A DNA stretch of 64,000 bases, taken from the IMG/VR virus record IMGVR_UViG_3300045988_144993; one strand, 5' to 3'. Source of the DNA: a virus. The notes below the pieces were generated by a model. That model made no database searches, was not told the DNA's origin, and was given only the letters and a program-made list of their open reading frames with translations. This document shows positions 3,274-61,794 of this stretch, one piece after another; positions within the stretch are counted from its first letter, which is position 1, and each line of letters starts with the position of its first letter. The position numbers were made by a program, and so were the translations under genes.

Positions 3274-3648
3274 ATGATATTAAAGGTAAATGATACAGAA
3301 AAATTCAACATTTCAATGACACTACACATTGATGACAAAGCAGAGGAAATCACGGTGCATATTAAGCACTGGGATAAACAGACCGGAGTTATAAACGGAT
3401 ATGATTATCCGGCAGCGGAATATTCAAAAGCCCTTGCAAAATTCAATGAGCTTGAAAATATTAAAATTGCAGGTAAAACAATGTTAAAAGCAACAAACAT
3501 ATTATGGGATGTCGATTATGATGATGACGGAGAATTGCCGACAGAAATTGATATACCTGAAGGAATGACAGACGAGGACGAAATATCTGATTATCTATCG
3601 GAAGTAACAGGATATTGCCACCAGGGCTATGTATTGGAGGGAAAATAA
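3274..3648 (+). CDS. hypothetical protein
   Basis: Start trimmed to the ATG after ribosome-binding site AAGGAAAA (MILKVND...). Confidence 0.5.
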   Translation: MILKVNDTEKFNISMTLHIDDKAEEITVHIKHWDKQTGVINGYDYPAAEYSKALAKFNELENIKIAGKTMLKATNILWDVDYDDDGELPTEIDIPEGMTDEDEISDYLSEVTGYCHQGYVLEGK

Positions 3649-3649
3649 A

Positions 3650-3973
3650 ATGTTACAACCTGGAGTATATAAAGCAGATAAAGGCGGATGGGATGGCTAT
3701 GAATTAACCGTTGATATTAAAGAAACGGAAAAGTCTTTGATTTTGAAAATCATTGATTATAAATTTAGATATTCACCGGCACAAATTGATATGCTATTCA
3801 AAAAAGATTTTGACCATATGAGTTATGAGGAACAGCAAAATATTAAAAATGGAAAATATCGTGCAGTTATCAAAAAACAAGGTGAAGGTCACGCTTTGAG
3901 GTTATGGGGTGATAATTCATTTACTTTATATCCATACCAGTCTGGTATTCCTTTTTACTTTGTAAAGCAGTAA
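3650..3973 (+). CDS. hypothetical protein
   Basis: Start trimmed to the ATG after ribosome-binding site GGAGGGAAAA. Confidence 0.5.
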   Translation: MLQPGVYKADKGGWDGYELTVDIKETEKSLILKIIDYKFRYSPAQIDMLFKKDFDHMSYEEQQNIKNGKYRAVIKKQGEGHALRLWGDNSFTLYPYQSGIPFYFVKQ

Positions 3974-4088
3974 ATAAAACTAACATTTCATTGATATTAA
4001 GGAGGAAAATATTTTGAAAAATCCGAGATTATTAAGTAGTAAAAACATTACGATTTTTGTCTTGACCGAGAATTTGAGGATTAAGTTA

Positions 4089-4117
4089 TTGACAATAGTA
4101 TAAACCTATGTTATAAT
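4089..4117 (+). promoter_or_regulatory. sigma-A-type promoter: TTGACA-N17-TGtTATAAT
   Basis: -35 TTGACA at 4089-4094 and -10 TATAAT at 4112-4117. The -10 box and the nucleotides around it are almost identical to the promoter at 2001. Confidence 0.55.
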
Positions 4118-4437
4118 ATATAAGAGGTGATATGATATGCCGAGAAACAAATTATAATCGGAACATATGACAGACCAGATGATAGGTAAATTAAAAAGAG
4201 AATGCCGGAAAATTCTCCGACATTACAGGTAGGAGCGTGATACAGTGTATCTATTAGTTACAATATTGATATTGCTTGTATGGGCTATATATAGCATTAT
4301 AAAGGCAGCACAGCCGGCTAATCCTCCTATTGAGGATATGGAACAACACCTAAAATATATTCAGAGCTTACCAAATCAAAAGGCAAGGAAAAAATATCTT
4401 AAAAAATTAAAAAAATTAAAATAAGAAGGAGCTTTAT

Positions 4438-4668
4438 ATGCCAAAGAGCAGTCAGAAAAAACTTGATTATAACAAAGAATATAACAGAAAAAACGGCTAT
4501 GCAAATCAGGCACGATACCACAAAACACATCCCAGCAAGACATATGGCTTGCGAGTGTTCTCGCACGAGACGGATATTATTGAGCAGCTTGAAAGTCAAA
4601 AAAATAAATCCGGTTATCTTAAAGAGTTAATCAGAGCAGACATTAAAAGACAAAAAGAACATAATTAA
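4438..4668 (+). CDS. small basic protein (76 aa)
   Basis: ORF with ribosome-binding site AGAAGGAG. Confidence 0.5.
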   Translation: MPKSSQKKLDYNKEYNRKNGYANQARYHKTHPSKTYGLRVFSHETDIIEQLESQKNKSGYLKELIRADIKRQKEHN

Positions 4669-4703
4669 AGAAAATTCCTGGCAACAGGATTTTTCTTAAA
4701 AAG

Positions 4704-4779
4704 TTAGAAATAATTTTGAGAAAAACGCTTGACAAATGGTTAAACCTATGTTACAATGTGTATAGTAAATGATTTACTA
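4704..4779 (+). promoter_or_regulatory. promoter with conserved upstream element and palindromic operator
   Basis: Upstream element TTAGAAATAATTTTGAGAAA at 4704-4723. -35 TTGACA at 4729-4734 and extended -10 TACAAT at 4752-4757. A perfect 17-bp palindrome, TAGTAAATGATTTACTA, lies at 4763-4779. Confidence 0.6.
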
Positions 4780-4807
4780 CACCACAAAGAATAGGAGTAA
4801 AAACAAA

Positions 4808-5020
4808 ATGAAAGTTACAAAGATTTATGTAGTCAGAGTACAGGCACGAGATGAATGGGGTTCAAGAAATTTAGACGAAGCATTTTTCAAACTTGAAAAG
4901 GCACAGAAGTTTATTGAAAGTCGCGGCGACAATCCAAAGCAGTTTAGCCCATATTATTATGAATCATCAGAATATAGATATTATATTGATAAATTAAGCA
5001 TACACGGTAAAAGGAGATAA
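4808..5020 (+). CDS. hypothetical protein
   Basis: The tracked ORF starts inside the operator. I trimmed the start to the ATG at 4808, which follows ribosome-binding site AATAGGAG. Confidence 0.5.
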   Translation: MKVTKIYVVRVQARDEWGSRNLDEAFFKLEKAQKFIESRGDNPKQFSPYYYESSEYRYYIDKLSIHGKRR

Positions 5021-5025
5021 ACACA

Positions 5026-5532
5026 ATGAGAGATTTAACAGCGTATGCAATAGAATGTATGACAGAGCTTGATAATATCGGAATTGAGTATGGAAATATT
5101 ATTGAGTTCACAGTAAATACAAGAGCAAAGAAAAGATGGGGGCAATGCAAGGCTGTTCCAGGCGGATATTCGATAAACATTAGTAATGTATTGCTTGATG
5201 AGAGAAACGATGTAAAAGGACTCAAGGAGACAATTCATCACGAGTTGCTGCATAGTTGCAAAGGCTGTATGAATCACGGCAATAACTGGAAGCGATTAGC
5301 ACAAAAAGTTAATAGAGCTTATGGTTATAATATTAAAAGGACAAATTCAGCAACCGACAAGGGTGTGCTTGAAGAAACAAGACCTCCTGTGAAACAAAGA
5401 GAAATCAATCATAAGGTTGTATGTCTTGACTGCGGACATATCTACACAAGAACAAAGATGAGCAAATTGATAACTAATACAGACCGTTACCGTTGCGGAT
5501 GCTGCGGCGGAAAGTTAAAACTTGAATATTAA
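5026..5532 (+). CDS. SprT-like zinc metalloprotease
   Basis: HELLH zinc-binding motif (IHHELLHSC). C-terminal zinc ribbon with the cysteine pattern CLDCG...CGCCGG. Confidence 0.6.
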   Translation: MRDLTAYAIECMTELDNIGIEYGNIIEFTVNTRAKKRWGQCKAVPGGYSINISNVLLDERNDVKGLKETIHHELLHSCKGCMNHGNNWKRLAQKVNRAYGYNIKRTNSATDKGVLEETRPPVKQREINHKVVCLDCGHIYTRTKMSKLITNTDRYRCGCCGGKLKLEY

Positions 5533-8594: not shown

Positions 8595-11500
8595 ATGAAA
8601 TATATTGTTGAAAATTTGATAATTCCACAAGATAAACGGGCAGAGATTAACAACAAAATTCTTTATTTGATTGACAACGGAATAGCGGAAGAAAACGGAA
8701 TAACTGCAACTGACATAGCAAGCTCATACACCGGAAACGGTGGATTAAGTGGAGAAAAATTTTCAAACTATGAAAATTATTATGATTATTCAGAAGCCAA
8801 AAAAGAATTTGAACAAGGACAGTTTTTTACACCGTATGCCATTACCGATTTTGTAATACAATGTTTGAAACCGGACAAATTCGATATAATTATGGATTTA
8901 ACTTGTGGTCACGGAGCTTTTGCCAATTCTGTTCCCCAGGAAAGTAATTTCTTTGGTTGTGAAATTGATATGAAATCTTATAAGGTTGCAAAATATTTAT
9001 ACCCAAAAGCAAATATCCGGTGTTCAGATATAAGAGTATATAATCCTGAAATAAGAGCAGATGTTATTGTCGGAAATCCACCATTTAATTTGAAGTGGCA
9101 AATTGGAGATACGACTTATGTATCACAACTATACTACACAATTAAAGCATCGGAGAATATTAAACCGGGTGGTTTAATGGCTCTGGTAGTTCCATCAAGT
9201 TTTCTGGCGGATGATTTTTCCGATAGAGGAATGATAGAAGAAGTTTCAAAAGAATGGAATCTATTATGTCAGTTTGACATTCCTTCAGATACATTCAAAA
9301 ATCTCGGCGTTACTAATTTTTCTACTAAAATTATGTTTTTCCAAAAGAAAAGCGAACATATTTTAGATGTAAAATTTAGCACGAAAAAAATTGCAATTGA
9401 TTGTCTTAATATAGAATCTTCAAATTTCATTTATGAAAATTATATAAAGCCTGTAATCACTTTAAGAAATAAGTTGAAAAATCAGTTGTTTTTTGAAAAT
9501 TTACACGATGGCAAGACTCAAGAACAAAAACAATTTGAATATAAAGTTAAAAAAATGATGTTTGATATTAAGAGAAATCCTGCTTTACAGGATAAATATG
9601 CAAAATGCAGCGAGTATCTTTACAAATACCAAACACAGAAAATGCCAGAAGGAATGAAGTATGAAGAATGGGAAAAGAGGAAAATCACGCCTAATAAGGT
9701 ACTTGCCTATTTAAGAAAAGTTATCAAATCTGAACATAAAGTTGAAATTGATAAGATTGAATTAGTAAAAACTGATTATGGCTTAAAGTTAAAACCATAT
9801 AGCCGTAAAATGAAAATCTTATTGAATAAACAATATGGAGATTTTGGAAAATTTGTATCTATTAACGATATTGTTTCAGGTCAATGTTCATATCAATTTG
9901 AAAACAAAAAGTATGAAAAACTTATTGATAAGAAAATTAAAGATTTTCAAAGTAATGAAGTATCATTTAAGGATATGAAACAAGATTCTAATATAATGAA
10001 ATTTCTTGATAATTTTTCTATCCACGATTATAACAAAAATGAAACTTATAAGTTGACGGAAAAGCAAAAAGAAGATATAAATAAACTTTTGCAGAAAAGA
10101 TATGTTTTCTTGCAGTGGGAACAGGGTAGCGGAAAAACTTTTGCCGGCATAGCTCAAATGGATTATAGATTCCAACACAACAATATTAGAAATGCTTTTG
10201 TAATCTCTACTGCTATCGCGATAAATAACAACTGGCAAGATTGCCTTGAGGCTTACCATTATGACTATATAAGAATCAATAGTTATTCGGATATTCAGAA
10301 GATTAAAAAAGGACAAATTGTTTTAATTACTCTTGATATACTCAATACTTTACAAAAACATATTAAGAAATTTGTTAAAATGCAATCTCAAAAAGTTATG
10401 CTTGTAATGGATGAAAGTGATAGCATATCAAATCAAAATAGCAAGAGAACAAAAGCAGTATTAAGTTGTTTTAGAAAAATTAAATACAAAGTATGTATGA
10501 CCGGAACAAGCACACGAAACAATATTTGTGAAATTTACCCTCAACTTGAATTGCTTTACAATAATAGCGTTAATATGTTGTGTGAATGTGAAACTGTTTA
10601 TGTTGTGGATAAAAATAAGGATTCTGAAACCAAAGGCAAAATTATTTCCGATTTTAATAAACAATATAATAATCCATTCCCAGCATATAAGAAAGGATAT
10701 TCATTATTCAGCAAATGTTTTCTGCCAGATAAAATCACTGTATTTGGAGTTGTTAAAAAAACACAAGATATATATAATTCAGAAGCATTGAAAAAATTGC
10801 TTGACAAAACGATAATCACAAGGAAATTTGAAGAAGTCACAGGCAAGAAAATTTACGAAATCAAAAATGTCACTTGTAAATTCACACCGGAAGAAGAAGC
10901 ACTATATTCAATAGCAATAGAGGAATTTTATAAAATGCAATATCTATTTAAGACAACAGGAAACAGCAGAAAAGATGCTATGTTGAGAATCTTAAATCAA
11001 TTAACTCTTTTGCTTAAAATATGTGCTTGTCCTCACACATTCAAAGAATATTCTTCAACTGAATTGTCGAGTAAATATAAAAAAGTATTTGAGATGATTG
11101 AAAAGTGGAATAATGAAAGAATTGTAATAGGTGTTCGCCACGTTGACAATGTTTATTCTTATGCCACGGCAATTAAGGAATTATATCCGAATAGACCATT
11201 GTTTGTTATTACCGGAAATAACACAACATTAAAGAAAAGAATATCAATTTGTAATGAACTGAAAAAAACAAGAAATGGTATTTTAATTTGCACACAGCAA
11301 TCATTATCGTGCAGTATGAATATTGACTTTGTAAATAAGTGTATTATTCCAGAATTGCATTGGAATAATGCAAGTATGAGTCAGTTTTATTTTCGATTTA
11401 TCAGATTCACTTCTACGGAATGGAAGGAAATATATTTTGTAACTTATGAAAACAGTATAGAAGGAAATCTGTTAAAAATGATTCTGTGTAAAGAAAAATT

Positions 11501-11657
11501 GAACCTTTTTATGAAAGATGAAAAAGTCGAAGATGATGACCTATATAGTAAGTTTGGAATTAACGAAATGATGCTAAAGGCGTTAATGACAAAGGGAAAG
11601 GACGAGAAAGGCAATATTAAAATCTTATGGGGTCATCAAAAAATCACAAACGATTAG
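8595..11657 (+). CDS. N6-adenine DNA methyltransferase fused to an SNF2/DEAD-like helicase (DarB-like)
   Basis: N-terminal methyltransferase motif I (IMDLTCGHGAF) and motif IV (VGNPPF). Helicase motif I (GSGKT), motif II (DESD), motif III (TGT) and a C-terminal Q..R block. Confidence 0.75.
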   Translation: MKYIVENLIIPQDKRAEINNKILYLIDNGIAEENGITATDIASSYTGNGGLSGEKFSNYENYYDYSEAKKEFEQGQFFTPYAITDFVIQCLKPDKFDIIMDLTCGHGAFANSVPQESNFFGCEIDMKSYKVAKYLYPKANIRCSDIRVYNPEIRADVIVGNPPFNLKWQIGDTTYVSQLYYTIKASENIKPGGLMALVVPSSFLADDFSDRGMIEEVSKEWNLLCQFDIPSDTFKNLGVTNFSTKIMFFQKKSEHILDVKFSTKKIAIDCLNIESSNFIYENYIKPVITLRNKLKNQLFFENLHDGKTQEQKQFEYKVKKMMFDIKRNPALQDKYAKCSEYLYKYQTQKMPEGMKYEEWEKRKITPNKVLAYLRKVIKSEHKVEIDKIELVKTDYGLKLKPYSRKMKILLNKQYGDFGKFVSINDIVSGQCSYQFENKKYEKLIDKKIKDFQSNEVSFKDMKQDSNIMKFLDNFSIHDYNKNETYKLTEKQKEDINKLLQKRYVFLQWEQGSGKTFAGIAQMDYRFQHNNIRNAFVISTAIAINNNWQDCLEAYHYDYIRINSYSDIQKIKKGQIVLITLDILNTLQKHIKKFVKMQSQKVMLVMDESDSISNQNSKRTKAVLSCFRKIKYKVCMTGTSTRNNICEIYPQLELLYNNSVNMLCECETVYVVDKNKDSETKGKIISDFNKQYNNPFPAYKKGYSLFSKCFLPDKITVFGVVKKTQDIYNSEALKKLLDKTIITRKFEEVTGKKIYEIKNVTCKFTPEEEALYSIAIEEFYKMQYLFKTTGNSRKDAMLRILNQLTLLLKICACPHTFKEYSSTELSSKYKKVFEMIEKWNNERIVIGVRHVDNVYSYATAIKELYPNRPLFVITGNNTTLKKRISICNELKKTRNGILICTQQSLSCSMNIDFVNKCIIPELHWNNASMSQFYFRFIRFTSTEWKEIYFVTYENSIEGNLLKMILCKEKLNLFMKDEKVEDDDLYSKFGINEMMLKALMTKGKDEKGNIKILWGHQKITND

Positions 11658-21316: not shown

Positions 21317-21367
21317 TTGACATTCTGGCATACATATGATATACTATCCATAGTAAATGATTTACTA
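21317..21367 (+). promoter_or_regulatory. integrase promoter with palindromic operator
   Basis: TTGACA at 21317 and extended -10 TATACT at 21340. Palindrome TAGTAAATGATTTACTA at 21351-21367, identical to the one at 4763. Confidence 0.6.
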
Positions 21368-21386
21368 CACAGGAGGTAGTGAAATA

Positions 21387-22340
21387 ATGAATACAAACAC
21401 AGTAAAAATCACACCATTATTCCAGAAAGTCGGAATTGATATTATTGAATTTCCTCAACAGGATAAAGCAACGAAATTAAAGAAAGATGGAACACCAAAA
21501 AATATTGTGTGCAACAAAAAGAAAGGCAAGAAATCAGAAGTTTATGCTATTGAAATTCCTGATATTAAGAAGTTAATAGATTTCTTTTATCAAAATGAAA
21601 TGTGGCAACATTATTTGATTTTCGTTTTGTCCTGTAATATGGCTCGCCGTATTGGTGATACACTTACTTTGACTTGGGAGCATTTCTTTAATCCGACAAC
21701 TGGTGCGATGAGAAATGACTTGCTTGAAATCGTAGAGGACAAGACCGACAAGCTCGCAAATCCTCATATCAATTCAGCTTGTAAAAAAGCAATTCTGCTT
21801 TATATTGAAAAAACAGGTATCAATCCTGCCGAAAACAATTATAAGAATTATGTTTTTGTGCAGACCAGCGGAAACTATAAAGGTAGAGTTATTACTGATG
21901 ATGGCTACCGTAAAGGCTTGAAAAAGGCTGCTGTTCAAGTTGGTATTGAGTATAACATTGGAACTCATAGTCCTCGTAAAACTTTTGGTATGATTAGTAG
22001 GATGTTGCATCCAAATGATTATGATAGTATGGAACTCCTTCAGACTATCTATAATCATAGCGATACCAAAACAACAAACCACTATATCGGATTAACAAAG
22101 AAGAAGATTGACACCTACTATGATGATATGGGTTCATTTTTTGATGATTATGTCACAGGTGATAAAACATATATGGAAGTTGCAGAGCAGCCCGTAGTAA
22201 GTATTGATACTAATTCTTTGAGAGATATTATCAAAGAGGCATATAAAGCCGGAGCAGAAAATGCAGATAACACCGACCCTGTTATTCACATTGATGCAAT
22301 CAACAAAATTATCGGTATGATTGAAGGAGTGGCAAAGTAA
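21387..22340 (+). CDS. int: tyrosine site-specific recombinase (phage integrase)
   Basis: ARRIGDTLTLTW (catalytic Arg I), HSPRKTF (HxxR box) and NHYIG (catalytic Tyr). Confidence 0.8.
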   Translation: MNTNTVKITPLFQKVGIDIIEFPQQDKATKLKKDGTPKNIVCNKKKGKKSEVYAIEIPDIKKLIDFFYQNEMWQHYLIFVLSCNMARRIGDTLTLTWEHFFNPTTGAMRNDLLEIVEDKTDKLANPHINSACKKAILLYIEKTGINPAENNYKNYVFVQTSGNYKGRVITDDGYRKGLKKAAVQVGIEYNIGTHSPRKTFGMISRMLHPNDYDSMELLQTIYNHSDTKTTNHYIGLTKKKIDTYYDDMGSFFDDYVTGDKTYMEVAEQPVVSIDTNSLRDIIKEAYKAGAENADNTDPVIHIDAINKIIGMIEGVAK

Positions 22341-26174: not shown

Positions 26175-26555
26175 ATGTTATATGAAGAAATGCGATTGCG
26201 AAAGACTGGCGAAACTGTAAGAGTATATGCTATTGCCCCTTCGGAAAATATAGCAACTATATTCTCTACTTCTCAATATACTAAAACAAATAATGGATGG
26301 CAGAAAATTAAGCTATCCCAGTTAGTTCCGATGGATTTTCCTATTAACAATAAAGATTATATTTCTAAAACAAAGAAGAACAAAGCGAAAGATAGAATGA
26401 AATTGATTGAAGCTACTTGGCAAACCAGTGACGGAAATCTTTGGAATCATTCTGACATTGATTCAGCAGTGGAACACGAACTTTTTCTTATGAGTTTAGA
26501 GGAAGTTTGTCTTTACTCCGATGGCAATAAGGAAAATATAGGAGGTCAAATATGA
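26175..26555 (+). CDS. hypothetical protein
   Basis: ORF with ribosome-binding site AAGAGAA. Confidence 0.5.
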   Translation: MLYEEMRLRKTGETVRVYAIAPSENIATIFSTSQYTKTNNGWQKIKLSQLVPMDFPINNKDYISKTKKNKAKDRMKLIEATWQTSDGNLWNHSDIDSAVEHELFLMSLEEVCLYSDGNKENIGGQI

Positions 26556-27616
26556 TTAAGTTTATTGATAAAAAGAATAGATTTGTTGAAATGTTTGACA
26601 AGAATACAGGTTTTTATGTTAGAAGTGGAGTTATGGGAGAATATGGAAAAGATACCGGTGTTGACCCATTTATGAGATGCTTTCCAGCACTTATTGATGT
26701 TGGTATTATGAATAAATGTGTTTGCGCTCATAAGTGTAATGTTGACTGTTATCAGAGAGCCATCGACCGTCACGGAGATAATATGTCTCTTGAAGATTAT
26801 AAGTCAATCCTTGAACAGTGTAAAGGCAAAACATTTCAGTATGCTTTGGGTGGAGCAGGAGACCCTGATACACACGAAAATTTCAAGGAAATTCTTGAAT
26901 TATCAAAAGAGTATGGTATCATACCAAACTTCACAACATCAGGAATTATGATGACAGAAGAAAAAGCAAAACTTTGTAAAGAATATTGTGGAGCAGTTGC
27001 CGTATCAGAACATTTTGCTGATTATACAAGAAAAGCTATTGATATGCTTTTGTCTGCCGGAGTAAAGACAAATATTCATTATGTTCTTGGTTCTGATTCT
27101 ATCGACTATGCTATTGAGCGGTTGAAGAACGGTGGGTTTGATAAAAGGATAAATGCTGTTGTATTTCTTCTTTACAAGCCCATTGGTCTCGGAAGAAAAG
27201 AAAATATTTTAACAATGGATAATCCAAAAGTCAAAGAATTTTTTGAATTAGTTGATACAGGTAATTATCCTCATAAGATAGGCTTTGATTCTTGCTCGTG
27301 TGGTGGAATTGTAAACTTTTCACAGCATATTGATATGAACAGTATCGACTTCTGTGAGGGTGGCAGGTATTCAATGTATATTGATTCCGATATGAATGCT
27401 ATGCCTTGTTCATTTGGTAATCAGGATAGTAAGTATTTCGTGAGTCTGCGTAAATATTCTATTGAAGAAGCGTGGGAGAGTGAAATATTTAATCAATTCA
27501 GAAATTCTCTCAATCATTCTTGCCCTAACTGTAAAGATAGAGCAATGTGTGGCGGTGGTTGCCCCATTTGTCGAGATATTGTTTTATGTGACAGAAAGGA
27601 AAAACATTTACTATAA
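26552..27616 (+). CDS. radical SAM enzyme with a C-terminal SPASM domain
   Basis: N-terminal cysteine cluster CVCAHKCNVDC, which is not the canonical spacing. GGAGDP SAM-binding motif. C-terminal SPASM-type cluster CPNCKDRAMCGGGCPIC. Confidence 0.65.
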   Translation: MIKFIDKKNRFVEMFDKNTGFYVRSGVMGEYGKDTGVDPFMRCFPALIDVGIMNKCVCAHKCNVDCYQRAIDRHGDNMSLEDYKSILEQCKGKTFQYALGGAGDPDTHENFKEILELSKEYGIIPNFTTSGIMMTEEKAKLCKEYCGAVAVSEHFADYTRKAIDMLLSAGVKTNIHYVLGSDSIDYAIERLKNGGFDKRINAVVFLLYKPIGLGRKENILTMDNPKVKEFFELVDTGNYPHKIGFDSCSCGGIVNFSQHIDMNSIDFCEGGRYSMYIDSDMNAMPCSFGNQDSKYFVSLRKYSIEEAWESEIFNQFRNSLNHSCPNCKDRAMCGGGCPICRDIVLCDRKEKHLL

Positions 27617-28044
27617 TGAAAATTAGAACAGATTTTGTAACAAACAGTTCAAGTAGTAGTTATGTTATTGCTTATAAAAAAATACCAGAGATTGATGAAG
27701 AAACCTTAAAACGCTATCCATTTTTGAAAGCATATCAGAGGGCTATTGACGGTATTATTACCTGTGAAAGTAATGATACCTCTGCTGCGACTGTAATTAA
27801 AACCAAAGAAGAATATGATAAGTATTTTGTTGAGAGATATGGTTGGAAAAGGGAATTTACCCTTGAAGATATTTTTAAAGATGATGAATACGCAAAAGAA
27901 ATTTATGATAAAGTTTTAGAATATTTTAATAAGGGATATGCTATTTTATGTAAAAACATCGACCATAATGATGATGGGTTAATGTCTCTTATTGATGCCA
28001 TTGCAAAAGATAATGAAGATTTCATTATATTAGAGGATGAATAG
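27616..28044 (+). CDS. paralog A of a three-gene family with N-terminus MKxRxDFVTNSSSSS
   Basis: N-terminus MKIRTDFVTNSSSSSYVIAY. The rest of the protein is acidic and diverged from its paralogs. Confidence 0.6.
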   Translation: MKIRTDFVTNSSSSSYVIAYKKIPEIDEETLKRYPFLKAYQRAIDGIITCESNDTSAATVIKTKEEYDKYFVERYGWKREFTLEDIFKDDEYAKEIYDKVLEYFNKGYAILCKNIDHNDDGLMSLIDAIAKDNEDFIILEDE

Positions 28045-28046
28045 TT

Positions 28047-28517
28047 ATGAAAGTAAGAAATGATTTTGTTACTAACAGTAGTAGCAGTAGTTTTATTCTT
28101 GGTTTTACTTCAAAAGACAAGATTGAAGAAGAATTATTAGAGGGTACTGCATCTGATTTGTTAAAAGATGTGGTATTAAAAGATGTTCTTGAGACTGAAC
28201 AATTTGACGAAAAAGAGGTCGAAAATAGAATAAGAGAAGAAATGAAATATACTGCTATTTGGCGTATTAAAGAATTATATATGAGAAGAACTGGATGTTC
28301 ACTTCAAGATGCAAGCGACTATGTAAATACCGATGATGGTAAAAAGGAAGTCGAACAGTATATTGATAATATCGTCAATGATGCAGCTCAAAAGATTTTT
28401 GAAAATGAAAAATGTGTATTTGTTGAAATATCTTATTCTGATGATTATAACTTTGAATTAGAAAATTACATTATGCCCTTTATTCCTGCGAACATTATTA
28501 CATTTAATCATCATTAA
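28047..28517 (+). CDS. paralog B of the same family
   Basis: N-terminus MKVRNDFVTNSSSSSFILGF. Confidence 0.6.
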   Translation: MKVRNDFVTNSSSSSFILGFTSKDKIEEELLEGTASDLLKDVVLKDVLETEQFDEKEVENRIREEMKYTAIWRIKELYMRRTGCSLQDASDYVNTDDGKKEVEQYIDNIVNDAAQKIFENEKCVFVEISYSDDYNFELENYIMPFIPANIITFNHH

Positions 28518-28528
28518 GGAGACAATAG

Positions 28529-29095
28529 ATGAAATATAGAAAAGATTTTGTAACGAACAGTAGTAGTTCGAGTTACATATGTGAAATATGTGGAAATTGT
28601 GAAAGCGGATATGATGTTGGGTTAAGTGAATTCGGAATGAGTGAATGTGTGAATGGTCATATATTTTGTGATGAACATAAACTCTCTATCACTGAAACAA
28701 AAGAGGATTTAATTAAATCAATTCTTGAAAATGAATATAATCATTCAACAGAAGAAGAACTCAATGATATGGATATTGAAGAATTATTCAATAAAAAATA
28801 TGATGGTGGTCATTATGAAATACCTGAATATATGTGTCCTATATGTCAATTCATTGAGTATAGTGAATCCGACCTTGCACAATATCTCTTAAAAGCATAT
28901 CAAGTATCGAGAGATACTGTATTTGCCGAGGTTAAGAAATTCAACAAGAGAAGAAAGAAGTTATATGACAGCGAATACATTACCTATGTTTGTCAACAGT
29001 ATAATCTCATTCCGGCTGAAATTGTTTCAAGTTGGAAAGAGAAATTTGGAACATACGATAATTTCATAACATATCTGAATTCTCACGAAAATTAG
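28529..29095 (+). CDS. paralog C of the same family
   Basis: N-terminus MKYRKDFVTNSSSSSYICEICGNC, with additional Cys pairs. Confidence 0.6.
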   Translation: MKYRKDFVTNSSSSSYICEICGNCESGYDVGLSEFGMSECVNGHIFCDEHKLSITETKEDLIKSILENEYNHSTEEELNDMDIEELFNKKYDGGHYEIPEYMCPICQFIEYSESDLAQYLLKAYQVSRDTVFAEVKKFNKRRKKLYDSEYITYVCQQYNLIPAEIVSSWKEKFGTYDNFITYLNSHEN

Positions 29096-29124: not shown

Positions 29125-29154
29125 ATTGACAAATGGAGATATGTATGCTATTAT
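29125..29154 (+). promoter_or_regulatory. sigma-A-type promoter with partial upstream element
   Basis: TTGACA at 29125, 18-nt spacer, TATTAT at 29149. Upstream element TTAGAAATAATTTTGA at 29095. Confidence 0.45.
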
Positions 29155-29206: not shown

Positions 29207-29815
29207 ATGAAAGTTAATATTACAAACAACATTTCTAATGTAAATGTTACAGTCAATCAGAATGATGATGGCTCACTTGCTATTCTTTTTTTTGAAAAGA
29301 CAGGCAAAAAGCTCGGTGATTTTAAGCCCGGTGAAACTGTAAAGCTCGGCAAACGTGAATATATTATTCTTGGTCACGGAGCAGAAACAACGGCAGTTGT
29401 GACAAAAGATATTTCAAAGGAAATGGAGTTCGGCAAGAGCTGGGATTATTCAAAAAGTTATGTTCGTGATTACTGTAATGGAGATTTCTATAATGAACTT
29501 GCAGAAGTAGTCGGCAAGAACAATATTGTTCCTCACAGAGTAAACCTCACCTGTGACGATGGCTCAAACAAAGGTGTAACTTGTAAGGATAATGTTTCTA
29601 TTCTCACAACTGAAAATTATCGCCGTTATCGTGAATATCTCCCTGCACTCGGCAAACCTTGTTGGACTGCAACAGGTGTTACTACACTTGATAAGGATTA
29701 TGCTCGTTTCGTTTGCTATGTCTATTCCGGCGGCGTTCTTGGCTGGCGTGGTTGTGACTTTGCCTGTGGTGTGCGCCCGTTTTGTATCTTGAATTCTTCA
29801 ATTCTTGTATCTTGA
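29207..29815 (+). CDS. hypothetical protein, paralog of 62546-63187
   Basis: Shares the blocks LKPGE..KLG, GKNNI and C.D.VS.LT, and a C-terminal W.GC...CGVRPF motif, with the distal paralog. Confidence 0.6.
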   Translation: MKVNITNNISNVNVTVNQNDDGSLAILFFEKTGKKLGDFKPGETVKLGKREYIILGHGAETTAVVTKDISKEMEFGKSWDYSKSYVRDYCNGDFYNELAEVVGKNNIVPHRVNLTCDDGSNKGVTCKDNVSILTTENYRRYREYLPALGKPCWTATGVTTLDKDYARFVCYVYSGGVLGWRGCDFACGVRPFCILNSSILVS

Positions 29816-29935: not shown

Positions 29936-30703
29936 TTGCCGACAAATAACAAGAATATGCACTCTAATGATAAAGAGTATCTAAAAGAATGTCTTATTAA
30001 AACCAAAGAGTATTTAGCTAACTTAAAATTAACGCTTAATAACAAGACTGAAATTGTTCCTATGAGTAAAGGCATTAGATTTCTTGGCTTTCATACATAT
30101 TTGACCGAGCAAGGTAATGTTATAAGAAAACTAAATGGAGATAACAAAAGGCAAGTTAAAAAGCGTTTAAGAAAGTACGCAAAGTTAGTAGCACAAGGAA
30201 GAATGAAGCGAGAAAAGTTCAATGAGATTTACTGTTCTTGGCGGAATCACGCATCTCACGGTAACTGTTTCAAGTTGATTTATGAAATGGATTTGTTTGT
30301 GGAAAATTTATTTAATGAAGAAAAACCTGAAATAAGGGTTATTATTGCCGGTAGTAGAGACTTTAATAACTACGAACTATTGGAAAAGTACCTTAATAAA
30401 TTCGTCAAAGAACACCCTAATAATAAGATAGCTATTATAAGCGGTGCTGCTCGTGGTACAGACCAACTCGGAGAAAGATATGCCAGAGAAAAGTGCATAT
30501 TATTAAAGAGGTTTCCGGCAAATTGGGAACAATTCGGTAAAAGGGCAGGTTATATTAGAAACATTCAAATGCTCGACTATATAGATGCATCTACCTGCGA
30601 TTCATATGTGTTTGCATTTTGGGATGGAAAGAGTAAAGGAACAAAACAAATGATTGATAGTGCTAAAAAACGAAATATACCGTATCAAATTGTAGCATTT
30701 TAA
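29936..30703 (+). CDS. fusion of a reverse-transcriptase fragment (post-YADD, thumb-like) with a DUF2493/SLOG-like domain
   Basis: N-terminal ~120 aa (..GIRFLGFHTY...YCSWRNHASHG) resemble the motif 6-7/thumb region of group-II-intron or retron reverse transcriptases; the fingers and palm are missing. The C-terminus (IIAGSRDF..ISGAARGTD..FWDGKSKGT) matches the SLOG fold. The tracked ORF uses a TTG start. Confidence 0.5.
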   Translation: MPTNNKNMHSNDKEYLKECLIKTKEYLANLKLTLNNKTEIVPMSKGIRFLGFHTYLTEQGNVIRKLNGDNKRQVKKRLRKYAKLVAQGRMKREKFNEIYCSWRNHASHGNCFKLIYEMDLFVENLFNEEKPEIRVIIAGSRDFNNYELLEKYLNKFVKEHPNNKIAIISGAARGTDQLGERYAREKCILLKRFPANWEQFGKRAGYIRNIQMLDYIDASTCDSYVFAFWDGKSKGTKQMIDSAKKRNIPYQIVAF

Positions 30704-60594: not shown

Positions 60595-61794
60595 ATGAGT
60601 AAAGTTAAGGTCAAAGTAGTAATAGGTAGTAATTATGGAGATGAAGGAAAAGGATTGGCAACACATTTTTTCTCTCAATCCGCGAAAAATAAGTGCTTAA
60701 ATGTTTTATTTAATGGAGGATGTCAACGAGGTCATACTGTCGAACTTAAAGATGGCACAAGGCATATTTTCCATCATTTTGGAAGTGGCACATTTGATAA
60801 TGCTCATACATACTTTGACCAAAACTTTATGGTTAATCCTGCAATCTTCATTCAAGAATATAATGAGCTTAAAAAATATGGCATCAAACCTATATGTATG
60901 ATTTCTCCTAAATGTAGAGTAAGCACTATGTATGATATGTTTATCAATCAAATTGTTGAAATACATAGAGAGAATAAAAGACACGGTTCTTGTGGTTATG
61001 GTATTTGGGAAACACAAAAAAGGTATGATGATGGTGTTTTTGCATTAGATTATAACCAACTATCTCATATGAACGATAAAGATGTTGTAGATTATCTACA
61101 TAATATAGCAAATGTTTATTTACCTAAAAAATTATTTGAATACGGAATAACAGAAATTCCACAAGAGTATCAAGAGTTGATAAAGTCTAAAGGGTTAATT
61201 GAACATTTCGTTAGTGATTTAAGAGAAATGCAATATATAACTTTTATGTGTGATTTCGATAGAATCCGAAATAAGTATAATACCATTATATTTGAGGGTG
61301 CGCAAGGTCTTGAACTTGATGAGAATAATCTAAAAGCATTGCCATACATCACAGCAAGTAATACTACTTCTTATACACCTATTCAAAGAGTTAATGATTT
61401 TGATTGCGATGTTGAAATTTGTTATATTACAAGGTCTTATTTTACCAGACACGGAGCAGGAACATTACCAACAGAATGTGATAAGTCGGATATAAATAAA
61501 GATATAACTGACCTTACAAACTGTTATAACGATTACCAGCAAACAATAAGGTATGGAATGTTTGATTATGATGAGTTTATCAATAGAGTGAAAGCTGATA
61601 TACAAAGAGCAAGAGAAAAAATCAGCGGAACAAAAACTTCTGTTATGATTACTCATTTGAATTATACGGATAATGAAATTGCAGGTAATTGTAAAATTCA
61701 AGATTTGTTAAAACATTTCGATAATATATATTTATCTAATACAAAATTTTCAGAAGATATAAAGAGAACCAACAAAGGAAGTACAATATATTGA
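60595..61794 (+). CDS. adenylosuccinate synthetase family protein (PurA/PurZ-like)
   Basis: GDEGKG, GGCQRGHT, FEGAQG, ASNTT and TRHGAGTLPTE motifs. Confidence 0.65.
   Translation: MSKVKVKVVIGSNYGDEGKGLATHFFSQSAKNKCLNVLFNGGCQRGHTVELKDGTRHIFHHFGSGTFDNAHTYFDQNFMVNPAIFIQEYNELKKYGIKPICMISPKCRVSTMYDMFINQIVEIHRENKRHGSCGYGIWETQKRYDDGVFALDYNQLSHMNDKDVVDYLHNIANVYLPKKLFEYGITEIPQEYQELIKSKGLIEHFVSDLREMQYITFMCDFDRIRNKYNTIIFEGAQGLELDENNLKALPYITASNTTSYTPIQRVNDFDCDVEICYITRSYFTRHGAGTLPTECDKSDINKDITDLTNCYNDYQQTIRYGMFDYDEFINRVKADIQRAREKISGTKTSVMITHLNYTDNEIAGNCKIQDLLKHFDNIYLSNTKFSEDIKRTNKGSTIY

Follow-up and report, generated by a model that had tools for sequence, protein, structure and literature searches.

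We analysed a 64,000-nt stretch of viral DNA (IMG/VR virus record IMGVR_UViG_3300045988_144993, hereafter the window) in which a gene for a radical SAM/SPASM enzyme is followed immediately by three genes whose products, referred to below as targets 1 to 3, begin with nearly the same 16 residues, a segment that we call the tag. A preliminary description made from the sequence alone had placed the four open reading frames (ORFs) here, giving 142, 156 and 188 aa for the three that follow the enzyme, and these positions and sizes were borne out exactly by the ORF list. The genes and the motifs within them are as follows, with the isoelectric points (pI) of the targets and with tag sequences taken from the ORF translations.

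26552-27616, plus strand: radical SAM/SPASM enzyme gene, 354 aa
26717-26749, plus strand: cluster motif of the enzyme, C56-x-C58-x3-C62-x3-C66, then the invariant Y67
27293-27589, plus strand: SPASM region of the enzyme, C248 to C346, with CX2CX5CX3C at residues 324-337
27616-28044, plus strand: tagged target 1, 142 aa, pI 4.6, 'VIAYKxxPxxDEET' subfamily
27616-27663, plus strand: tag of target 1, MKIRTDFVTNSSSSSY
28047-28517, plus strand: tagged target 2, 156 aa, pI 4.5, 'FILGF...SHH-COOH' subfamily
28047-28094, plus strand: tag of target 2, MKVRNDFVTNSSSSSF
28529-29095, plus strand: tagged target 3, 188 aa, pI 4.7, Cys/His-rich (CxxC...CxxxH...C, CPIC) and zinc-ribbon-like
28529-28576, plus strand: tag of target 3, MKYRKDFVTNSSSSSY

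As read from the sequence, an AGGAGG lies 7 nt upstream of the enzyme ATG, the start of target 1 overlaps the enzyme stop codon (TAATG), and the intergenic gaps are 2 nt between targets 1 and 2 and 11 nt between targets 2 and 3, with a Shine-Dalgarno-like sequence before each. The enzyme and its three targets thus look like a single translationally coupled unit. A promoter and terminator scan identified a good promoter-like site just past the cassette (29126-29154), which is weak evidence for the end of this unit, and was otherwise uninformative, the DNA being AT-rich.

The tag and the proteins that carry it

All three targets in the window start with MK(I/V/Y)RxDFVTNSSSSS(Y/F), and the wider consensus, 16 residues at the protein start, is MK(I/V)RxDFVTNSSS(S/T)S(F/Y) (synthetic form of the tag peptide, MKVRNDFVTNSSSSSFILGF). 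The preliminary description had restricted conservation to the N-terminus and had called the divergent remainder acidic, and both statements hold, with no detectable similarity past about residue 18 and pI values of 4.5-4.7 for all three proteins. Its further claim that the targets were clearly duplicated from one ancestor is not confirmed. Pairwise blastp comparisons of the targets minus their first 18 residues gave E = 2.1, 0.002 and 0.12, and hhalign comparisons among eight target subfamilies gave homology probabilities of at most 17%. The tagged proteins of related phage loci form about 30 sequence families, and the window targets fall into the three largest of these, each conserved across phages; the subfamily of target 1 is the largest in the viral loci, with 41 distinct members, and that of target 3 has 35. 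Because the targets belong to separate conserved subfamilies and show no homology past the tag, they are not recent tandem duplicates, and these comparisons suggest that they share a tag rather than any demonstrable common ancestry.

No NCBIfam model matched either the full target proteins or their 30-residue N-termini, and in RefSeq and UniProt every checked target is 'hypothetical' or 'uncharacterized', the enzyme being a 'SPASM domain-containing protein'. Target 3 gave weak zinc-finger matches only against Pfam, and one database member of its subfamily carries the source name 'C2H2 type zinc-finger protein'. The target 2 family has a conserved ...SHH-COOH terminus. An AlphaFold2 model of target 2 has a predicted local distance difference test score (pLDDT) of 88.8 overall, with residues 1-11 (MKVRNDFVTNS) below 50, and residues S13-F20 form strand 1 of a three-stranded sheet packed on helices; no structural relatives of this model were found. 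The first eleven residues of the tag are thus predicted to form an exposed flexible tail.

We examined the constancy of the tag at the codon level in 173 distinct 60-nt DNA versions. The constancy of residues 6-16 is partly by construction, since the selecting pattern fixed them, but it left K2 and R4 free, and each of these was retained in 172 of the 173 versions; a looser pattern, used for the enzyme-anchored viral loci described below, recovered essentially the same set. Every tag position, pattern-fixed ones included, uses several synonymous codons, all five Ser positions show both AGY and TCN, and Val and Thr are each encoded by their full set of four codons. Since synonymous codons vary while K2 and R4 stay, a DNA-level repeat is ruled out and strong purifying selection on the peptide is indicated.

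A tag profile built from 49 short protein fragments was used for an exhaustive search of 1.84 billion representative proteins, in which it matched 15,758 representatives at E <= 1e-3 and 358 at E <= 1e-10, with scores of 60-105 bits. The match began at residue 1 in 141 of the 150 best matches. These scores, and the retention of K2 and R4, place the tag far beyond chance. Tagged proteins in the loci that we fetched range from roughly 90 to 1815 aa, and in bacteria the domains behind the tag include BspA-type leucine-rich repeats (LRRs), PQQ beta-propellers, TIR and BRCT domains and transmembrane segments. The largest example comes from a metagenome-assembled genome of Eubacteriales (L115), in which tagged proteins of 1815 and 777 aa lie side by side, the larger with many BspA-type LRRs; the tag is therefore not confined to small proteins. 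In some bacterial proteins (loci L074 from position 289, L105 from position 3394, L114, L133, L171, L153 and L160) a signal-peptide-like hydrophobic stretch stands right behind the tag, one form having a lipobox (LASC; …FAAAAVTTVAGILASCNC) and another an AxA site (…FGAATVTGMATAILTAVGISAAASA/EE). With the tag ahead of such a stretch, it would form part of the cytoplasmic n-region and be lost during export.

Two further ideas about the tag were considered and dropped. Rare tag variants that are concordant within a genome might have served as evidence of co-evolution, but cases were too few and confounded by recent duplications. The NCBIfam domain NTTRR-F1, considered as a possible description of the tag, is named in a sole paper, which concerns a Bacillus protein of about 2294 aa.

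The enzyme and its linkage to the tag

The window enzyme scores 33.3 bits against the Pfam SPASM model PF13186 (cut-off 21.5; E = 6e-8; residues 268-328), 29 bits against the SPASM model TIGR04085 (cut-off 27) and a marginal 30.4 bits against Radical_SAM PF04055 (cut-off 29.5; E = 5e-7). It can be placed among SPASM proteins by profile and by the C-terminal CX2CX5CX3C, and among radical SAM proteins by profile threshold and a partial TIM-barrel fold. The SPASM-type cluster of the preliminary description is therefore confirmed, with eight conserved cysteines. The enzyme also matches phrog_7293 at 1e-25 and has 3789 homologs at E <= 1e-5, but the NCBIfam scan gave weak generic SPASM maturase matches only, none near a family threshold, and there is no curated family for it; PADLOC likewise returned only weak generic viperin-like radical SAM matches. 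No PqqD-like RiPP recognition element (RRE; RiPP, ribosomally synthesised and post-translationally modified peptide) was detected in the Pfam and NCBIfam scans, and residues 1-45 are predicted to form three short strands only.

The cluster motif at the N-terminus, CVCAHKCNVDC, reads CxCx3Cx3C instead of the canonical CX3CX2C, as had been noticed in the preliminary description, and its four cysteines (C56, C58, C62 and C66) are all invariant in an alignment of 52 close homologs. In a wider alignment of 148 rows, representing 145 homolog ORFs of phage and cellular origin, C56 and C66 are kept wherever the residue aligns and three cluster cysteines are retained in every clade, while the loop between occurs in three forms. 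The clade of the window enzyme has the short CxCx3Cx3C, the commonest form in the family is Cx7Cx6C (GHCIHGKTGLCAKAGIGCYQ), and a sister clade has the canonical CX3CX2C (TNYCERECDFCYR). This sister clade (loci L079, L080, L082, L089, L122-L124, L128, L135, L146 and L186) is found in Deltaproteobacteria, Sporomusa, Arenibacter and Methanoculleus, and its enzymes are paired with targets of about 122-142 aa whose tags end in ...NSSSTSF or ...NSSTTSF. The existence of the canonical sister clade argues that the enzyme family descended from true radical SAM enzymes, and the alignment indicates that the window's CxCx3Cx3C is a derived variant of the family motif.

Other cysteines and glycines of the enzyme are similarly constant. 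In the 148 rows, C248, C268, C286, C324, C327, C333 and C337 are present in all homologs with a residue at the column, and C346 in 134 of 136, two Arg being the sole substitutions. Each of these eight SPASM cysteines occurs in 134-144 of the 148 rows, and the exceptions besides the two Arg are gaps, mostly in partial sequences. The GGE-like motif takes the form of a conserved 'GGAGD', in which G100, G101 and G103 are found in 144 of 144 rows with a residue and the aspartate D104 in 131 (Asn in 12).

By sequence, the solved relatives of the enzyme are limited to anSME, BtrN and PqqE, matched in the SPASM region alone (E ~3e-3). An AlphaFold2 model (pLDDT 88.9; predicted template modelling score 0.88) extends these relationships. 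Foldseek aligned it over its full length to SuiB, anSMEcpe, PqqE, CteB, SkfB and ChlB (E 5e-12 to 2e-8; template modelling (TM) scores of about 0.6), the best matches being SuiB, anSMEcpe, PqqE and CteB (E ~1e-11; TM scores 0.6-0.66), and it aligns to SuiB, anSME, PqqE and viperin with probability 1.00. The model thus resembles SPASM enzymes that modify peptides or proteins.

We looked for linkage between enzyme and tag from both directions. The enzyme-anchored search, an alignment-based scan of viral contigs, yielded 62 loci with enzyme identities of 51-99%, and at 58 of these there are one to eight tagged ORFs beside the enzyme on the same strand, so that the neighbourhood seen in the window is conserved. 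Of the four loci without an adjacent tag, two lie at contig ends; at L016 tagged genes occur elsewhere on the same contig, and the last (L030) is considered below. The size of the tagged array varies between related phages, with 2, 3, 5 and up to 8 copies. Neither blastn of the region nor tblastn of target 2 matched any GenBank phage, and only distant enzyme homologs in T4-like phages were found there.

The tag-anchored search used a degenerate DNA pattern (MKxRxDFVTN, then five WSN Ser-type codons, then F/Y). In a collection of bacterial and archaeal genomes it occurred in at least 120 stretches, from which 8-kb blocks were taken, and the taxa among the matches listed include Firmicutes, Deltaproteobacteria, Coriobacteriia, Bacteroidota (Arenibacter), Negativicutes (Sporomusa), Kaiserbacteria of the candidate phyla radiation (CPR) and the archaeon Methanoculleus. 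An enzyme homolog is present in 95 of the 120 listed blocks, in either gene order, with a median distance of 24 nt from the nearest tag and 53 distances within 100 nt. The question left by the preliminary description was whether the tag is also common where the enzyme is absent. The informative blocks, those in which the tag is flanked by 3 kb or more of sequence in each direction, contain the enzyme in 22 of 27 listed cases. Listed viral tag blocks contain it in 68 of 120, and in 13 of the 14 whose flanks, counted outward from the tag genes, each reach at least 4 kb. In the CPR bacterium Candidatus Kaiserbacteria (L120, 35-4900), seven tagged genes, encoding 109-149 aa, stand in tandem behind the enzyme gene.

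Clustering of all ORFs from the 120 listed genome loci revealed no third gene family common to many of them, and in particular no protease, exporter or RRE protein. One apparent third conserved family proved to be an antisense shadow ORF within the enzyme gene.

A probable protein-modification system and its alternatives

Comparative genomics therefore supports, as a predicted function, the earlier proposal that a SPASM maturase acts on full-size proteins through their conserved N-terminus. The proposal withstood both checks that the preliminary description had named for refuting it, on linkage in homologous genomes and on the tag in the absence of the enzyme. We consider it probable that enzyme and tag form a two-component protein-modification system, in which the enzyme modifies a portable N-terminal tag. 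A broader formulation, for and against which we would argue about equally, is that tag and dedicated enzyme are a previously undescribed protein-tagging system across domains of life, with a tag that can be fused to any protein and a radical-mediated, possibly new chemistry on the Asn-Ser run, and that the variable arrays of small acidic effectors in large gut phages are an expansion of it.

Under the two-component proposal, a cytoplasmic enzyme would bind the exposed tag on any protein, cleave S-adenosylmethionine and abstract a hydrogen inside the invariant T-N-S-S-S stretch; the enzyme keeps three cluster cysteines and the full SPASM motif. The most likely product, by analogy, would be a serine oxidised to formylglycine, ranked ahead of a crosslink or an epimerisation because the closest analogy is anSME, which has no RRE and acts on Ser/Cys in a short motif of whole proteins. 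In the window, one enzyme gene would be transcribed and translationally coupled with three small, acidic, mutually unrelated targets. One enzyme serving several targets per genome (one to eight in phages) would keep the tag from drifting. A putative accessory, host-takeover or anti-defence role for the tagged phage proteins fits the observations that the arrays vary in copy number and content and that the proteins are acidic.

Comparison with known systems helps to delimit this proposal. The anaerobic sulfatase-maturating enzymes (anSMEs; AtsB and anSMEcpe, PDB 4K36-4K39) are also radical SAM/SPASM proteins of about 360 aa without an RRE; their substrates are full-size proteins, modified at a Ser or Cys that belongs to a short conserved motif close to the N-terminus. 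They give the best sequence match to the window enzyme among solved structures, albeit in the SPASM region only (E = 0.0025), and a top structural match to its model (E = 6e-12; TM score 0.62). Identity is nevertheless only about 19%, the cluster motif of the window enzyme is non-canonical, and the tag stands at residue 1 of unrelated proteins, with several tandem targets per enzyme. The system does not belong to the anSME family, which it resembles in structure only, because the window targets have neither a sulfatase domain nor the (C/S)xPxR motif and no NCBIfam anSME model matches the enzyme.

The RiPP SPASM maturases (SuiB, CteB, PqqE, SkfB and ChlB) share the same fold (Foldseek E 5e-12 to 5e-9), and their genes are adjacent to substrate genes that share an N-terminal recognition sequence, as is the case here. 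In contrast to these systems, the window enzyme has no detected RRE, its family's targets are proteins of about 90-1815 aa rather than short precursor peptides, and no protease, peptidase or exporter is linked to the 120 listed genome loci; for these reasons the system is not a classical RiPP pathway. Nor, on the same grounds, is the tag a RiPP-style leader. The conserved part here probably holds the modified residues itself instead of guiding chemistry to a C-terminal core.

A different parallel is offered by sortase/LPXTG, exosortase/PEP-CTERM and rhombosortase/GlyGly-CTERM, in which short, near-invariant terminal tags on unrelated proteins co-occur with one dedicated processing enzyme. The same logic of one enzyme and many substrates would explain the lack of tag drift, although those tags are C-terminal with a transmembrane helix and are handled by proteases or transpeptidases rather than by radical SAM proteins.

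The nearest annotated phage homologs of the window enzyme are phrog_7293 proteins of T4-like phages (RB16 p156, KP15, KP27), with 28-29% identity at a coverage above 90% and the same SPASM layout but a Cx7Cx2C motif. Such radical SAM/SPASM homologs, with no tagged genes close by, occur in RB16, KP15, KP27, Miller and others (173 records; in Escherichia phage RB16, locus L001, at 3929-5083).

Several observations weigh against a dedicated enzyme-tag pair. There is no tagged gene within 4 kb of the enzyme homolog in the T4-like phages RB16 and KP15, nor within the 2.5 kb available downstream of the enzyme at L030, and the reverse situation, a tag without an enzyme within 3-4 kb, occurs at 5 of the 27 informative genome loci and 1 of the 14 viral ones. 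In the model of target 2, S13-F16 of the tag belong to a predicted core beta-strand, so part of the Ser run may be inaccessible after folding. The cluster motif CxCx3Cx3C is, to our knowledge, without precedent, and altered or absent activity is possible. Finally, the near-total invariance of the 16-mer across domains is unusual for enzyme recognition and might instead reflect contact with a universal cellular machine.

The alternative that survives best, though we think it unlikely, is that sorting is the main function of the tag, for instance in export, membrane targeting or virion packaging, with the enzyme in a processing or gatekeeping role or as a passenger. It is partly compatible with the two-component proposal, since the two overlap if the modification is itself the sorting step. 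Many bacterial tagged proteins have surface-type domains (BspA LRR, PQQ propeller) without an ordinary signal peptide, and in some the tag runs into the signal-peptide-like stretches described above. Tandem unrelated small proteins with a common N-terminal tag also recall the internal protein loci of T4-type phages, in which unrelated, fast-evolving small proteins share a short N-terminal capsid-targeting sequence. The prohead scaffold, however, recognises that sequence and the prohead protease cleaves it; it is not known from cellular genomes or to have a radical SAM partner, and it shows no sequence similarity to the window tag, which lacks the L/I-x-E cleavage site at its end. The tag, by contrast, is common in cellular genomes, with no phage context visible in the examined blocks. 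In addition, the TIR and BRCT domains found behind it are cytoplasmic, the 120 listed genome loci share no neighbouring transporter, protease or structural gene, and the sole conserved partner is a cytoplasmic Fe-S enzyme.

Far less probable is a return to common descent, in which the targets would be true paralogs of one ancient fold that kept their N-terminus for a structural or catalytic reason next to an unrelated radical SAM gene. Several subfamilies do share the ...SHH-COOH end and an acidic composition, and the second half of the tag is the first beta-strand of the modelled fold of target 2. Yet the most conserved residues, 1-11, are predicted to be disordered, the profile-profile comparison of the eight subfamilies gave no appreciable homology (<=17%, as above), the tag is found on unrelated architectures (LRR, propeller, TIR, BRCT, transmembrane) of up to 1815 aa, and the linkage to the enzyme is too strong and phylogenetically too broad for coincidence. 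We give almost no credence to the idea that the common 5' sequence is a DNA-level element, such as a site of recombination or cassette exchange or an enhancer of translation initiation: although the variable copy number and content of arrays in related phages suggest frequent gain and loss at gene boundaries, Ser codons switch between AGY and TCN and synonymous sites are free while the amino acids stay fixed, a pattern explained without any DNA-level repeat.

Phage context and significance

The window as a whole covers replication and accessory functions of a large phage or prophage: it encodes a helicase that has a methyltransferase domain, an NAD-dependent ligase and primase-like proteins, and it has an integrase-like gene (21357-22340, plus strand; phrog_216). 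Contigs named Ruminococcus sp. or Oscillospiraceae, with lengths of up to 0.9-2.5 Mb, encode proteins identical to those of the window, and with the integrase-like gene these make a temperate phage or prophage of the Ruminococcus/Oscillospiraceae group the probable identity of the element.

Several other genes of the window deserve mention. The 1020-aa helicase (8595-11657, plus strand; phrog_24008) has an N-terminal methyltransferase-like region resembling DarB-type antirestriction proteins. Directly past the tagged genes lies a gene for a DUF6273-like / phrog_9958 protein (29207-29815, plus strand; E = 2e-36), which adjoins the cassette in related phage contigs too. It is followed by a 255-aa ORF with a TTG start (29936-30703, plus strand) that contains only the tail of a reverse transcriptase and a YAcAr/SLOG domain. 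Related phages encode a full 475-aa protein of the reverse transcriptase-SLOG type (compare L002, 7860-9287) and have an extra 121-aa gene at the same place, so the window copy looks truncated at its 5' end. Near the end of the window, a 399-aa ORF (60595-61794, plus strand) matches phrog_1211, '2-aminooxy adenylosuccinate synthetase' (E = 7e-55), and because this ORF is PurZ-like, 2-aminoadenine may take the place of adenine in the phage DNA.

With respect to novelty, no annotation in Pfam, NCBIfam or PADLOC covers the tag or the enzyme clade, and phrog_7293 and phrog_7397 are both of 'unknown function'. Full-text literature searches by motif and by topic gave no description of the system, but these covered only literature open without a subscription, so that a prior description is possible. 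The genomic comparisons suggest that the pairing first seen in one phage extends to a very large unnamed system that reaches from phages across several bacterial phyla to a CPR bacterium and an archaeon.

If the proposed modification is correct, the tagged proteins would constitute a large family of modified whole proteins that is absent by name from Pfam, NCBIfam, RefSeq and UniProt and spans thousands of protein clusters in gut Firmicutes, Deltaproteobacteria, Bacteroidota, CPR bacteria and methanogens and in their phages. It would be a second, anSME-like case of a SPASM enzyme acting on full-size proteins, and would imply that the cluster loops of radical SAM enzymes tolerate spacings (Cx7Cx6C, CxCx3Cx3C) far from the textbook motif. 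The natural 16-residue tag could perhaps be transplanted for site-specific protein chemistry. For the phages themselves, what appears to be a variable cassette of small acidic proteins would become a coherent, enzyme-dependent set and a candidate for functions in host takeover or anti-defence.

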